Source: a virus
Taxonomy: Duplodnaviria > Heunggongvirae > Uroviricota > Caudoviricetes
Virus record (IMG/VR): IMGVR_UViG_2579778919_000005
Strand: one strand, 5' to 3'
Length of the DNA stretch: 4,050 nucleotides
Positions within the stretch are counted from its first letter, which is position 1, and each line of letters begins with the position of its first letter. The notes beneath the pieces are model-generated. The model was not told the origin of the DNA. It saw nothing but the letters and a program-made list of their open reading frames with translations, and made no database searches. A program made the position numbers and the translations under genes. Of this stretch, positions 1 to 4,050 are shown piece after piece.

Positions 1-192
1 TCAGGAGCATTTCTGGTTAACGCCACCGTTAAGAATCCACCCTTCAACAGCTTCACGAAGGTATGATTTGGGGTGGGTTCTGACTGGCTTCGGAAATCCG
101 TACCGTTTGGTATAGTTCCAGATTGTCTGACGTGATGAAACACCGAGCTTGTTCATCACTTCTTTCTCAGGAATCAGGCTGGTATCGGTCAT
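1..192 (-). CDS. AlpA-family helix-turn-helix DNA-binding protein (prophage transcriptional regulator / excisionase-like), 63 aa
   Basis: Complete ORF on the minus strand: ATG at 192..190, TGA at 3..1. GGAGA Shine-Dalgarno (plus coords 199..203) sits 6 nt upstream of the ATG. The translated segment EKEVMNKLGVSSRQTIWNYTKRYGFPKPVRTHPKSYLREAVEGWI fits the AlpA/Vis-type HTH pattern recalled from memory (hydrophobic-x-x-E-V, G-x-S-R-S/T-T-I-Y, FP-K-P, trailing W). Size of 63 aa is typical for the family. Confidence 0.8.
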   Translation of the reverse strand: MTDTSLIPEKEVMNKLGVSSRQTIWNYTKRYGFPKPVRTHPKSYLREAVEGWILNGGVNQKCS

Positions 193-269
193 CTTAATTC
201 TCCAGGCAAAAAGAAACCGCCATATAGCGGCTCTATCAGATATGTACAGGCCTCATCGAGTGTGGGGCG

Positions 270-614
270 TTAGTCCTTGCGTAGCTCGCTGATTCTTCTG
301 TAAGTCTCTGGCGCTTTGTTTCCGTGTATCTTCATTTCAGACTTCAACAGAGCAACGAGGGAATCCCATTCGTTGAGGATGCCTTTGAATGTCGGAACGC
401 GCTTTGCAACCTTGTCGAATGAATCTCTGATTTCTGGAATCTGCTCAACAAGTGCAACACATCGCCGGAAGTCTGCTGCGTCATGGGGAGCGCCGAAGTG
501 ATGACCATAGATATTCTTTTTCAGTCCACATGCGATTGAGGCAAGAGTTGCGCTACTGATGCCGACATCGCCAGTTGATTGCCATTTCAAAACCTTCATA
601 GCCAAATCTGACAT
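270..614 (-). CDS. hypothetical protein, 114 aa (123 aa if the GTG at 641 is used); no recognisable family
   Basis: ORF track lists a minus-strand ORF 270..641 whose first codon is GTG. An in-frame ATG at 614..612 is preceded by GGAGA (plus coords 621..625) with 6-nt spacing, so I prefer that start. Stop is TAA at 272..270. The protein has mixed, non-repetitive composition and no predicted TM segment. It is in tandem with, and 77 bp upstream of, the AlpA-like gene, so probably co-transcribed. Function unknown; I do not recognise the sequence. Confidence 0.6.
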   Translation of the reverse strand: MSDLAMKVLKWQSTGDVGISSATLASIACGLKKNIYGHHFGAPHDAADFRRCVALVEQIPEIRDSFDKVAKRVPTFKGILNEWDSLVALLKSEMKIHGNKAPETYRRISELRKD

Positions 615-663
615 TTCTTGTCTCCATAAAACAAAACTCACCGTAGCGAGTTCAGATAAAAGA

Positions 664-685
664 AATCCCCGCGAGTGCGAGGATT
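664..685. promoter_or_regulatory. 22-bp imperfect palindrome AATCC-c-CGC-gagt-GCG-a-GGATT; candidate operator or bidirectional hairpin in the divergent intergenic region
   Basis: Pairs 664..668 with 681..685 and 670..672 with 677..679, with one mismatch (669/680). It lies between the divergently oriented minus-strand cassette (start 614) and the plus-strand gene run. On the minus strand it is followed by TTCTTTTATC, so it could also act as a terminator for leftward transcripts entering from the right. Confidence 0.3.
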
Positions 686-693
686 GTTATTCA

Positions 694-1089
694 TTGCCGA
701 TATTCACCTTTATCGCGAACACCTTTACAGGAGGACTTGGTTCGACAGCCACAAGCAATCAACTGGCTACGATTGCTCCGACTCTCGGTCAGTCGTGGTT
801 ATCAAACCAGATGAGCAATTACAACAATCTGGCAAACGTTGGGCTTGGTGCGCTGCAAGGTCAGGCAAACGCTGGGCAGACATACGCCAACAACATGAGC
901 AGCATTGCACAGCAAAGCGCAGCACTTGCCGCTGCTAATGCCAATAAACCATCAAGTCTTCAGACAGCAATTAGCGGCGGCACGTCTGGTGCGATTGCCG
1001 GTGCAGGTCTTGCCAGCCTTCTTGAAACATCAACACCGTGGGGTGCTGGCATTGGCGCTGGTATCGGATTGCTTGACTCGTTGTTTTAA
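694..1089 (+). CDS. small Gly/Ala-rich putative membrane-active virion (ejection-type) protein; 5' end uncertain, possibly a truncated remnant
   Basis: Frame-1 ORF ending in TAA at 1087..1089. The track start (ATG 559) gives a Cys-rich, non-protein-like N-terminus and overlaps the divergent minus-strand gene, so I reject it. Remaining in-frame starts are TTG 694 (GAGGA at 679..683, 10-nt spacing) or ATG 811 (no clear SD). The C-terminal part (TSGAIAGAGLASLLETSTPWGAGIGAGIGLLDSLF) is a glycine-zipper hydrophobic segment. Composition matches the next two genes. Confidence 0.45.
   Translation: MPIFTFIANTFTGGLGSTATSNQLATIAPTLGQSWLSNQMSNYNNLANVGLGALQGQANAGQTYANNMSSIAQQSAALAAANANKPSSLQTAISGGTSGAIAGAGLASLLETSTPWGAGIGAGIGLLDSLF
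705..727 (+). repeat. direct repeat CACCTTTA (705..712 and 720..727), with a flanking TATTCA duplication (688..693 and 701..706)
   Basis: Exact 8-bp direct repeat 15 bp apart, immediately upstream of GGAGGA (730..735), inside the uncertain 5' region of ORF1. Could be tandem regulator-binding sites or coincidence. Confidence 0.25.
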
Positions 1090-1098
1090 GGGGTAATC

Positions 1099-1812
1099 AT
1101 GGCTACTTGGCAAGGAACAAACGGCGGATTGTTGGCTGGTATCGGTGGCGTCAACTCAAACGCTCCTAACGTAAATGACATCGGCAATACGCTTCAGCTT
1201 ATCAGGCAGAACAATGATATTGAGCGTTCAGGCGCTAACAATGTTGGGCTGACTGTTTTGCAAGGTCTTTCTGGTATTGCGGGTGTTTTTAAGCAGGAAA
1301 AGCAGGCTCAGCGGCAGAAAGAATTTCAGCGGGCGTACGCTAATGCTTATGCGTCTGGTGATCGCGGTGCTTTGCGTCAGTTGGCTACTCAATATCCAGA
1401 CCAGATTGAATCTGTTCGTAAAGGAATGGGATTCATTGATGAAGACCAGCGCAATTCTATCGGCACCTTAGCGGCTGGCGCACGCCTTGCATCATCATCT
1501 CCAGAAGCAATGCAATCATGGCTGCAAAACAACGCCAAGGAACTGACTCGCGTCGGTGTTGACCCTAATAACGTTGCTCAGATGTATCAGCAGAATCCTT
1601 CAGGATTTGGTGAGTTTGTTGATCACCTTGGGATGGCTGCTCTTGGTCCGATTGATTACTTCAATGTTCAGGACAAGATGGCTGGTCGTGAGATTGACCG
1701 AGGCAGACTGGCAGAGACAATCCGCAGCAATCAGGCTGGTGAAGCACTAACAGCGCGTGGTCAGGACATCCAGATATCGGAAAGATTAGAAATCAGCTTG
1801 AAAGCAAGTTGA
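1099..1812 (+). CDS. putative internal virion / DNA-ejection protein, 237 aa (functional analogue of the P22 gp7/gp20/gp16 class)
   Basis: ATG at 1099 preceded by AGGGG (1090..1093) with 5-nt spacing; stop TGA at 1810..1812. The N-terminus has a glycine-rich hydrophobic stretch (GGLLAGIGGV) followed by a Q/N/A-rich, probably helical, low-complexity sequence. It lies in a co-oriented run of genes directly upstream of a P22-type tailspike gene, the position ejection-protein genes occupy in P22-like phages. The functional call rests on synteny and composition, not recognised sequence identity. Confidence 0.7.
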   Translation: MATWQGTNGGLLAGIGGVNSNAPNVNDIGNTLQLIRQNNDIERSGANNVGLTVLQGLSGIAGVFKQEKQAQRQKEFQRAYANAYASGDRGALRQLATQYPDQIESVRKGMGFIDEDQRNSIGTLAAGARLASSSPEAMQSWLQNNAKELTRVGVDPNNVAQMYQQNPSGFGEFVDHLGMAALGPIDYFNVQDKMAGREIDRGRLAETIRSNQAGEALTARGQDIQISERLEISLKAS

Positions 1813-1814
1813 GC

Positions 1815-1840
1815 ACTGTTAAAAAACAGTTTGATTATCA
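1815..1840 (+). terminator. weak hairpin (ACTGTT-AAAA-AACAGT) followed by TTGATTATCA; candidate attenuator between ORF2 and ORF3
   Basis: 6-bp stem with only 2 G:C pairs and a 4-nt loop, starting 3 nt after the ORF2 stop, followed by a U-rich stretch. If real, it would only partially terminate. Confidence 0.2.
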
Positions 1841-1912
1841 GGAGCCGGTGCAGAATATGCCAGGGCAACAATCTACTACTGGCAGTAACTTTTCTTCACT
1901 ATGGGGTGATTA

Positions 1913-3175
1913 ATGGCTAAAGCATGGAAAGATGTTATCAGATTTGCAGAGCGTGAAGGAGTTCCTCTGCACACCACAGACCTGTTACAACCAACTTCCT
2001 GCGTCGGAAAAATGGCGCAGACTACAGCAGAAAATATCCCTCTGGCTGGCACAAGCGGAATGAGAGCAACGCAACAGGAAGCGAGAAGCCAGTTGGTGCA
2101 GAGATTTGCTGATAAATTCGGTGAGTATGATCCAGCGGTTGTTATTGACAGCCTTAAAGCGAAAACATCAGGAATTCGTCGTGCCGCCGGTAATCGACTG
2201 GAGCAGGTTCAGAATGCTATGGCTGGAGTAAACATTCAGCCTGCGCGAGCAATTCAGCAGATTGATACAGAAATATCTAACCTGCAGAAGCTTGGTAAGG
2301 TTGCTGATAACGAGACTATTTCAAAACTTCAGTCATATCGTGATGAGCTTGTTCGCAATGCTGGTCCTGATGGTCCGGTAAATCTGGATTTGAAGCAATT
2401 AAGCGATCTGCGCAGCCAGTTCAGAATGGACGTGAAGGGTGAGCGACCAGTGTTACCAAACCGTTCCGATGCTGCCATTCAGCGCGTTTACAAGGCAATG
2501 ACCGACGATATCAATGGTGCCATTGGTCAGAATCTTGGCAACGATACTCTCCGTAAATATCAGCAGGCCAATGCCGTCTACGCTGACGAAGCGGCGAAAC
2601 TAAAGAATACCAGACTGAAGAATGTTCTCATGAAAGGCGACCTGACGCCGGAAGTTGTCAACAACATGCTATTCAGCAAGAACAAATCGGAAATTAAGAC
2701 GCTGTATAACTCAGTTGGTCGTGTTGGCCGGGCGCAAATGCGCAATGGCATCATTGGAAAGGCGATGGAGAAATCTGGCGGATCCCCAGCCCAGTTCCTT
2801 CGACAGCTTAACATCCTGCAAAACCATACTGGCATCACATTTAAAGGTCAGGATGCTGCTTATCTGAAAGGATTGAAAAACTACCTGCAATCCACGCAGC
2901 AGGCTGCAAAAGCGGCAGTAACAACACCCACAGGTCAGCAAACCATCCCGTTCATTATCGGGTATGGGACTGCAATGAACCCGGCGACAACTGGCGCAGC
3001 AGTAAGCTACGGCCTTCTTGCTCGCGCCTATGAGAGTAAGCCATTCAGAAATGCAATGCTACGAATGGCAAATACCCCACGCGGATCAACAGCGTTTGAG
3101 AAAGCCATGCAGCAGGCACAAAAGGCCATTAACTCCCTGACTCAGGGTGCTAAGTCTGATGCGTTGTCAGAATAG
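1913..3175 (+). CDS. putative internal virion / DNA-ejection protein, 420 aa
   Basis: ATG at 1913 preceded by GGGG (1903..1906) with 6-nt spacing; stop TAG at 3173..3175. Long, uninterrupted ORF; the competing ORFs on either strand are short and internal. The protein is A/Q/K-rich and probably helical, with a hydrophobic Gly-rich segment near the C-terminus (IPFIIGYGTAMNPATTGAAVSYGLLA). It is the last gene before the tailspike. The functional call is by position and composition only. Confidence 0.75.
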   Translation: MAKAWKDVIRFAEREGVPLHTTDLLQPTSCVGKMAQTTAENIPLAGTSGMRATQQEARSQLVQRFADKFGEYDPAVVIDSLKAKTSGIRRAAGNRLEQVQNAMAGVNIQPARAIQQIDTEISNLQKLGKVADNETISKLQSYRDELVRNAGPDGPVNLDLKQLSDLRSQFRMDVKGERPVLPNRSDAAIQRVYKAMTDDINGAIGQNLGNDTLRKYQQANAVYADEAAKLKNTRLKNVLMKGDLTPEVVNNMLFSKNKSEIKTLYNSVGRVGRAQMRNGIIGKAMEKSGGSPAQFLRQLNILQNHTGITFKGQDAAYLKGLKNYLQSTQQAAKAAVTTPTGQQTIPFIIGYGTAMNPATTGAAVSYGLLARAYESKPFRNAMLRMANTPRGSTAFEKAMQQAQKAINSLTQGAKSDALSE

Positions 3176-3284
3176 CTTCGCAAACACCAGGAATATGCAA
3201 AAACCAAATATGTAGAGCGCAATATTCAATAGATCTCTTTGCATAGACTCATCTCATAATTAACAAATCATAACTGACATTAGT

Positions 3285-3320
3285 GCAATGCTGGGCAAGT
3301 TGCATCTTGTTCGGCATTGC
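3285..3320 (+). promoter_or_regulatory. 15-bp stem / 6-nt loop RNA hairpin 20 nt upstream of the tailspike start codon
   Basis: Left arm 3285..3299 (GCAATGCTGGGCAAG) pairs with right arm 3306..3320 (CTTGTTCGGCATTGC): 12 Watson-Crick pairs plus 3 G:U pairs, loop TTGCAT. No U-tract follows, so it is not a canonical intrinsic terminator; more likely an RNA stability, processing or translational-control element. Confidence 0.4.
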
Positions 3321-3339
3321 TACGTCCGGAGCAAATTAA

Positions 3340-4050
3340 ATGACAGACATTACAGCCAATGTTGTAATTGGGATGCCTTCGCAACTCTTCACTATGGCGC
3401 GTTCTTTTAAAGCCGTAGCCAATGGCAAAATTTATATCGGTAAAATTGACACTGACCCGGTAAATACTGAAAACCAGATTCCGGTTTATGTAGAGAACGA
3501 AGACGGCTCTCACGTTTCTGTTTCTCAACCAATCATCATTAACGCTGCTGGATATCCGGTATATAACGGGCAGATTGCCAAATTCGTAACTGTGCAAGGC
3601 CATTCTATGGCTGTATATGATGCGTATGGCACGCAGCAGTTCTATTTCCCTAATGTGCTGAAGTATGACCCTGATCAATTTCAGGAAAGATTGCTATCTG
3701 AAAATGGGCCATTATTAGTTGATGATTCAGTTGTTCGTGTAAAACAACCCCTCTCTATGGCAATCGAGAGAGCACAGCACGATAAAAATGCAGATTTTGT
3801 GAGCGCGAAAGACTTTGGGTTTAAAGGTGATGGCACGAATGATGATGCTGCGGTGCTCAAACTTAAAGATTACGTTAACACAAGACCTAAATATTCTCCA
3901 CCAGTATCCGTGTACTTTCCAGATGGAAATTATCTTATTAGCGAGTCATTGAATTTAATTAGACCTGTTACTTTATACTCTTTTAAAGGAGCAACAATAA
4001 ACTATACTGGAACTGACGCTGCAGTTAAGTGTGGAGATCCAACTGACGAA
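3340..4050 (+). CDS. tailspike protein, N-terminal 237 codons (P22 gp9-type head-binding domain plus the start of a beta-helix receptor-binding domain); 3' end lies beyond the window
   Basis: ATG at 3340 with GGAG (3328..3331) 8 nt upstream; the frame stays open to the last base of the window. Residues 1..113 (MTDITANVV...[21 protein letters not shown]...[14 protein letters not shown]...QPIIINAAG...[13 protein letters not shown]...NVLKYDPDQ) match, at most positions, the conserved head-binding domain of P22/Sf6/HK620-type tailspikes as I recall it. After YDPDQ the sequence diverges and contains [17 protein letters not shown] (nt 3808..3858), the motif typical of the start of pectate-lyase-like right-handed beta-helix depolymerases. 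Not in the supplied ORF track because it has no stop inside the window. Confidence 0.9.

Follow-up and report, generated by a model that had tools for sequence, protein, structure and literature searches.

A tailspike assembled from exchangeable parts raises two questions: which surface glycan does its receptor-binding part recognise, and does the gene still serve a phage? Both arise in the stretch of viral DNA analysed here (4,050 nt in its entirety; hereafter, the window), which closes with a plus-strand open reading frame that starts with an ATG at position 3340 and is open through the window end (237 codons). A sequence-only reading had taken this frame for a mosaic tailspike, in which a P22-type attachment module is joined to a different beta-helix domain, and had proposed it as a host-range determinant.

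The window ends in the first third of a mosaic tailspike gene

Tracing the 420-aa product of window positions 1913–3175 by exact-sequence look-up yielded 17 contigs, several of which agree with the window at 100% identity over its entire length. Such full-length identity (100% over 4050 nt) holds for L006 and L007, and L005 (GCA_003145915.1, NBJZ01000073.1; isolate Spr2013_WWKa_ALT_55) is 99.98% identical to the window. This isolate stems from wastewater in Germany (PMC5997705). The full tailspike gene was recovered from the contigs that are 100% identical to the window: it comprises 1944 nt (L006 11428–13371) and encodes 647 aa, and window positions 3340–4050 hold its 5′ third, that is, the first 237 residues. 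Beyond position 4050 the frame runs on without interruption to 647 codons, in 7/7 contigs containing the gene. The features at this end of the window are:

3176–3339, plus strand: intergenic spacer between gene 16 and the tailspike gene, 164 nt, without immI genes, in an Sf6-like arrangement (the 164-nt spacing is equal in Sf6 and in the prophage of L002)
3340–3678, plus strand: head-binding (virion attachment) domain of P22 type, tailspike residues 1–113 (Pfam PF09008, nucleotide identity, PDB sequence matches)
3678–3684, plus strand: main recombination boundary after codon Q113 (YDPDQ/F), placed by the identity drop against HK620, Sf6, CUS-3 and 720R6
3679–3807, plus strand: neck or linker, residues 114–156, leading into the beta-helix cap (Sf6 neck similarity, structural model, identity to the 5CC variant)
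3808–4050, plus strand: predicted onset of the right-handed beta-helix in the receptor-binding domain, residues 157–237 of 647, with [13 protein letters not shown] as its first residues; the reading frame continues past the window end
3839–3859 (~3850), plus strand: second module boundary within the gene, immediately past the GDGTNDD motif, placed by the identity drop against the 5CC variant

The assignment of residues 1–113 to a conserved attachment module held up. They match Pfam Head_binding (PF09008) over 113/113 profile positions (E = 4.3e-65), and the PDB sequence matches of this domain are to the head-binding domains of Sf6 gp14 and of the P22 tailspike. By megablast against 50,697 phage records, nt 3340–4050 matched 28 P22-like phages at 85–94% nucleotide identity, among them HK620, Sf6, CUS-3, IME10, epsilon34 and Sf101 (88.8% in the head-binding part); the head-binding domain of Sf6 gp14, an endorhamnosidase (PDB 2VBK, 7SG7), is ~92% identical at the nucleotide level. 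The gene order is likewise that of Sf6, with gene 16, the 164-nt spacer, the tailspike and, encoded on the opposite strand, an O-antigen acyltransferase. An Rfam scan of the window, this spacer included, returned no match. The head-binding domain, the position at the late operon's end behind ejection genes 7, 20 and 16, and the beta-helix all agree with membership of the P22-like (Lederbergvirus) gp9 family. Thus, the gene is a modular, mosaic P22-like (Lederbergvirus-type) tailspike gene, and RefSeq already lists its product as ‘phage tailspike protein’ (WP_107144853.1, WP_060618122.1).

Mosaicism was also visible within the attachment module. Relative to strains 81 and Br_167_kylling, gene nt ~1–210 (window 3340–3550) vary between 73 and 100% identity per 30-nt bin; beyond nt ~210, within the compared gene nt 1–900, identity to both strains is 100% apart from ~4 mismatches with strain 81 confined to the final 60 nt. 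Counted along the entire gene, 16 codons distinguish the Br_167_kylling copy from the remnant copy.

Two exchange points inside the gene

Breakpoints were mapped by aligning the gene to HK620, Sf6, CUS-3 and 720R6 and counting identity in 30-nt bins. Identity to these four genomes ranged from 83 to 100% as far as gene nt 330 and had fallen to chance by gene nt ~342 (window ~3681). All 28 phage megablast matches ended at query nt 215–354 and 27 of them at 329–354, so that an exchange right after DPDQ, as had been proposed from the letters of the window, was borne out. The DNA matches to Sf6 and HK620 stopped at gene nt 338–346, far from the near-identity over the whole length that would have marked a tailspike of known specificity.

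That the protein downstream of residue 114 is unrelated to P22 proved correct, since P22 tailspike chains in the PDB align with residues 1–117 only; it is not, however, unrelated to all tailspikes. Residues ~129–183—the neck and the first coil—share 43% identity over 56 aa with residues 136–191 of Sf6 gp14, with which the protein also has its beta-helix architecture in common. After residue ~183 no sequence similarity to Sf6 was detectable, and the C-terminal domain is a different one. The break is sharp in the DNA, and the start of the new module is distantly related to the Sf6 neck.

A further drop in identity emerged from the comparison with variant L003 (strain 2018-05-5CC), to which the gene is 96–100% identical over gene nt 331–510 and then ~66%. 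The conserved first-coil motif GDGTNDD may have served as the crossover site. Exchange after YDPDQ is a textbook principle of modular tailspike evolution; what the alignments add is the second exchange point, after GDGTNDD.

A tailspike depolymerase fold without close solved relative

The motif [17 protein letters not shown], which the sequence-only reading had placed at the head of a beta-helix, lies exactly where it was reported (residues 157–173, nt 3808–3858). Pfam Pect-lyase_RHGA_epim (PF12708) matches the window reading frame from residue 153 (E = 4.5e-9, 36.9 bits); scores for this profile ranged from 36.9 to 39.2 bits against a gathering cut-off of 27, and 25/29 members of the domain family matched it. 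We built an AlphaFold2 model from an alignment of 29 homologues headed by P0001, which shares 98% identity with the window-source protein. The model is confident at residues ~150–648, with low confidence up to residue ~140, and predicts a right-handed beta-helix (~150–515) followed by a C-terminal beta-sandwich (~525–647). Its best Foldseek matches are tailspikes, namely those of Det7, Sf6, HK620 and CBA120 (TSP3) together with Acinetobacter and Klebsiella depolymerases. Searched against the PDB, neither the single protein nor a 29-sequence profile gave a match past residue ~206, and P22 was absent from the profile matches. The receptor-binding domains of the HK620 tailspike (an endo-N-acetylglucosaminidase acting on O18A1) and of P22 gp9 (an endorhamnosidase) are unrelated to this one, with 10–12% identity in structural alignments; for HK620 there is similarity in fold only, at 12% identity. 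The predicted fold is thus that of a tailspike depolymerase, without a close solved relative.

Among the 50,697 phage records, the domain was found only in St11Ph5 and its near-twin vB_EcoP_ShWW44 (Gamaleyavirus, N4-like), at 55–59% identity. Homology to St11Ph5 gp63.1 extends over the full receptor-binding domain, with 55% identity over 534 aa (residues 116–647; E = 0) spanning both the beta-helix and the C-terminal domain; the window receptor-binding domain is a member of the St11Ph5 gp63.1-type family. Unlike the window protein, gp63.1 carries a G7C-type adapter anchor instead of the P22 head-binding domain, and its phage is virulent. The gp63.1 analogue is a lyase by prediction only (PMC6393563). 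Among 5.8 billion proteins searched, 30 homologues were detected, with identities of 39–99%, and 28 further family homologues at 36–57% identity share 52 invariant columns. N-terminal anchors vary within the 29 aligned proteins—Tail_spike_N in nine, a T7 tail-fibre N-terminus in one—and the P22 head-binding domain is confined to the E. coli prophage form of the family. The domain is therefore a cassette shuffled between unrelated podovirus scaffolds, in line with the general pattern of receptor-binding cassettes shared across phage scaffolds (Pas et al. 2023; PMC10408124).

Acidic positions D286, D337, D347, E300, D303 and E400 (P0001 numbering) are invariant or nearly so across the family. 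Position 399, a Glu in 28/29 family members, is a Lys in the window-source copy; this E399K change is present in 7/7 contigs of the remnant described below (L006 12622–12624, codon 399, beyond the window end). It is one of three residue differences from the Br_167_kylling copy in the receptor-binding part. Against L002 there are only five differences in this part, too few for a selection test. The E399K copy may be inactive, and the substitution may mark the start of functional decay.

The tailspike gene lies in a decayed prophage at sbcB

In the contigs, sbcB is followed by a tyrosine integrase gene, an AlpA-like gene, a hypothetical gene, remnants of genes 7, 20 and 16, the tailspike gene, an acyltransferase gene and an IS fragment. 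We judged the damage against an apparently intact P22-like prophage in L002, which has genes 7, 20, 16 and the tailspike in the same order. Upstream of the spacer, the window contains:

1–192, minus strand: AlpA/excisionase-like helix-turn-helix gene beside the sbcB-site integrase (PHROG 66, excisionase, E = 2e-8; Pfam AlpA, E = 0.0064, weak and below cut-off)
270–641, minus strand: hypothetical prophage gene of the integrase-proximal end (PHROG 1229, E = 1e-51; annotated as hypothetical, beside the integrase, in L004 and L005)
694–1089, plus strand: remnant of gene 7 (ejection protein), N-terminal ~105 residues lost, junction at nt ~727 (Pfam P22_gp7 positions 107–230 of 230; residues 106–219 of 219)
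1099–1812, plus strand: remnant of gene 20 (ejection protein), 237 aa, C-terminal half lost (Pfam Inj_translocase, E = 1e-76; residues 1–225 of 443–464-aa intact proteins)
1913–3175, plus strand: remnant of gene 16 (ejection protein), 420 aa, in-frame deletion of ~244 codons after codon 9 (residues 246–665 of the 665-aa L002 protein; PHROG 770 positions 226–666 of 668)

Homology to P22-like prophages begins at window nt 726–733. In gene 20, an out-of-frame deletion with its junction near nt 1776 ends the product at residue 237; in gene 16, nt 1882–1939 correspond to L002 6469–6526, after which the alignment jumps to 7258. In L004 and L005, the AlpA-like gene and the end of the integrase gene overlap. 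Head, lysis, replication, immunity and regulatory genes are absent from the sbcB remnant. Because the head, lysis and regulatory genes are absent and the ejection genes truncated, no virion would arise from this locus, and the window tailspike is best read as a relic in a decayed, non-viable prophage. Here the sequence-only reading was not supported: in a prophage remnant at sbcB from which no virion is possible, the gene is not an active host-range determinant of this genome.

Several further traits of the remnant were recorded. The integrase-proximal genes are joined straight to the middle of gene 7 (window 1–727; L004 8001–8729), with ~30 kb of prophage missing, and the internal deletions of genes 20 and 16 lie close together (window 1764–1939). 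Two terminator-like hairpins with T-runs are located on the minus strand at 634–685, beside the deletion junction and upstream of the minus-strand hypothetical gene; a third terminator-like hairpin lies at 214–233, in the gap that separates the two minus-strand genes. The left junction recurs in strain PSJ-16, where the sequence continues into the middle of gene 20 and the tailspike has a different receptor-binding domain. This comparison suggests successive deletions and tailspike replacement within one remnant family.

The site is a familiar one: attachment at sbcB is documented for Sf101, a serotype-converting phage of the P22-like group, and prophages of this type leave an O-acetylase gene behind upon decay (PMC4159516). 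Sf101 and other serotype-converting P22-like prophages at sbcB resemble the window prophage in their insertion beside that gene and in having the tailspike and then an O-antigen acyltransferase at the prophage end, and Sf101 also in prophage decay that leaves the modification gene. Sf101 differs in its receptor-binding domain, in its acyltransferase and in its host, S. flexneri rather than E. coli.

Tailspike and acyltransferase seem to move together

Just downstream of the tailspike gene lies the one feature beyond the window that bears on its history:

L005 13432–15432, minus strand: acyltransferase with AT3 and SGNH domains, 666 aa, of the kind that O-acetylates O-antigens

In the sbcB remnant, the region past the tailspike stop codon, which includes the whole acyltransferase gene (2292 nt), shares 99.5–99.6% identity with its counterparts in strains 81 and Br_167_kylling, whose prophages lie at argW, and the 3′ part of the window-source tailspike gene is 99.3–99.6% identical to the copies in argW prophages. 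The integrases of the sbcB remnant and the argW prophages differ. Given this near-identity despite different integrases, receptor-binding domain and acyltransferase would travel together and seem to move as one cassette. Comparable pairings are the Sf6 tailspike with oac and the P22 tailspike with gtr. Within the remnant, the acyltransferase is most likely the gene kept by selection, through serotype conversion or exclusion of same-type phages, and the tailspike may merely be its neighbour.

A second relic of this domain family occurs in E. coli B strains (REL606, BL21, ATCC 11303, NEB Express and others), in the form of a 5′-truncated 445-aa copy. It is located in the att-lambda region between a prophage integrase gene and ybhB (L021 8893–10230; REL606 ECB_RS03940), lacks the head-binding domain, the neck and the first coils, and sits in a decayed prophage between two acyltransferase genes. 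BL21(DE3) records among the matches listed had the wzy match alone, the domain copy being apparently absent. The E. coli B copy belongs to the same domain family as the window copy (82% aa and 84% nt identity) and shares with it the decayed prophage, the adjoining acyltransferase genes and a distribution in strains with O7-type rfb; it differs in its chromosomal site and in being of the 5CC-like subtype. New here is the recognition of the window copy and the truncated E. coli B copy as relics in decayed prophages.

Nearly all carriers of the domain have O7 wzy

Correlation with the O-antigen gene clusters of the hosts, a comparison already suggested from the sequence, pointed to O7. The window part of the domain (nt 3679–4050) is present in 3/5426 complete E. 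coli genomes, and all three possess O7-type clusters with O7-family wzx and wzy; their annotated O7 clusters contain rmlBDAC, vioA/vioB, manCB and wbbD. The 3′ two-thirds of the gene occur in 52 genomes, in two at an identity of at least 99% and in 50 at ~84%. An O7 wzy co-occurs in 51/52 of these carriers, against a base rate of 97/5426 (1.8%)—a count in which many of the 51 are clonal E. coli B derivatives, so that independent observations are far fewer than 51. The overlap was measured by searching with the concatenated 3′ segment and O7 wzy, which gave 98 records and 150 places. The domain copies fall into two subtypes, ~84% identical in nucleotide sequence, and occupy three attachment sites (argW, sbcB and att-lambda); the carrier strains are of human, poultry, pig, seawater or laboratory origin. 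The window-source contig ends before the rfb cluster, and the O7 association is drawn from the other carrier genomes; the flanks of the source contig are 99.4% and 98.3% identical to those of O7 strains and 98.6% identical to those of a strain of unchecked O-type.

Two carriers stand out. Br_167_kylling (NZ_CP182378.1) has two copies of the 3′ part of the domain, and TUM10008 (NZ_CP135658.1 4368999–4370191) is the sole carrier without O7 wzy, possibly through an O-antigen switch after lysogeny.

In temperate P22-like phages the tailspike matches the O-antigen of the lysogenised host. Because of this match, and because nearly all carriers are O7, the substrate of the domain is likely to be the O7 O-antigen; that of Sf6 gp14, in contrast, is the S. 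flexneri Y backbone. The O7 cluster encodes pathways for Rha, Qui4NAc, Man, Gal and GlcNAc, that is, neutral and amino sugars, and no uronic-acid pathway was present in the annotated O7 clusters of the three carrier genomes. Since the O7 cluster lacks such a pathway, a hydrolytic endoglycosidase is more likely than a beta-eliminating lyase, and the conserved acidic positions would fit a hydrolase. Of the earlier label ‘pectate-lyase-like’, the fold stands, and lyase chemistry is unlikely.

By analogy with the tailspikes of P22, Sf6 and HK620, the protein would work as follows. Module 1 (residues 1–113) would dock a trimer onto the virion; module 2 (residues ~114–647), comprising neck, beta-helix and beta-sandwich, was recombined in directly after YDPDQ. 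The trimer would bind the O7 O-polysaccharide along the beta-helix and cleave the chain as an endoglycosidase; through this cleavage, a virion would be lowered onto the outer membrane. Taken together—a modular tailspike, probably an O7 hydrolase, surviving as a relic in a decayed prophage—we assign this reading a probability of about 0.72.

Alternative readings

The association with O7 could reflect shared ancestry of the carriers, with the domain targeting another surface glycan such as capsule, colanic acid, ECA or core. The clonal E. coli B derivatives among the carriers would fit this, as would TUM10008, a carrier without O7 wzy, and the seemingly O-antigen-independent infection by St11Ph5: its isolation host is an O5ab uropathogenic strain, not O7 (PMC5764931), and resistant host mutants retained their LPS profile, from which that study inferred that O-antigen recognition can be circumvented (PMC6393563). 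The best PHROG match is moreover labelled ‘colanic acid degradation’, but this match (PHROG 8280) covers residues 1–173 only, the head-binding domain and neck, with the beta-helix outside it, and we rejected the label as evidence on these grounds. Colanic acid and ECA are near-universal in E. coli, for which a serogroup-restricted distribution is not expected, and the strong skew towards O7 persists across two subtypes, three attachment sites and varied sources. We consider a different glycan quite improbable. That the domain is a polysaccharide lyase, as both the name of the Pfam profile and the lyase prediction published for St11Ph5 gp63.1 would have it, is argued against by the lack of a uronic-acid pathway in the carriers’ O7 clusters—an argument that holds for the predicted substrate—and strikes us as highly improbable.

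An already characterised tailspike of the Sf6, HK620, P22, CUS-3 or epsilon34 type, with the corresponding specificity, is suggested by the first 113 residues, which are ~90% identical to those proteins in DNA. This identity was rejected on the phage-record and PDB searches: no phage record matches past gene nt ~354, the PDB sequence and profile searches are empty beyond residue ~183–206, and the only phages to share the domain, St11Ph5 and ShWW44, do so as the distant relatives described above; its probability is practically nil. The odds are nearly even, by contrast, that the gene in the window genome is silent or inactivated and intact only through recency of decay. Truncation affects its neighbours 7, 20 and 16, and nothing is left of the late promoter and antiterminator region. 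A promoter scan found no sigma-70-like site or consensus promoter on the plus strand of the 164-nt spacer upstream of the tailspike, and across the window predicted sites were no more frequent than in shuffled sequence. The E399K change at a nearly invariant Glu, the presence of essentially one allele across all seven contigs and the 5′ truncation of the related E. coli B copy point the same way; the unbroken 647-codon frame in every contig speaks against it. Such silence is compatible with the modular O7 tailspike favoured here, as it concerns the present use of the gene and not what the gene encodes.

Implications for O7 recognition

Tailspike receptor-binding domains are the main predictors of the O-serogroup attacked by a podovirus or an engineered derivative. 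O7 includes extraintestinal pathogens, and the E. coli B laboratory lineage was ancestrally of this O-type. Within the collection of papers that our literature searches covered, no O7-specific E. coli phage or tailspike came up, and the 14 serogroups for which a survey from 2023 listed specific E. coli receptor-binding proteins do not include O7 (PMC10408124). A more ambitious reading would see in this locus the first tailspike specificity for E. coli O7, a hydrolase family without characterised or solved member and a mobile ‘recognise and modify’ cassette of tailspike and AT3-SGNH acyltransferase, retained in decayed prophages, those of E. coli B included, perhaps for the benefit of the host and with the E399K copy acting as a non-cleaving binder; we regard this combination as rather unlikely and put it forward tentatively. 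The locus is otherwise a textbook case of modular tailspike evolution and prophage decay that introduces no new principle, and the advance—the probable assignment of an uncharacterised domain family to O7—is modest. If validated, an O7 domain would be graftable, after YDPDQ or GDGTNDD, onto P22-, G7C- and T7-type scaffolds for typing or therapy.
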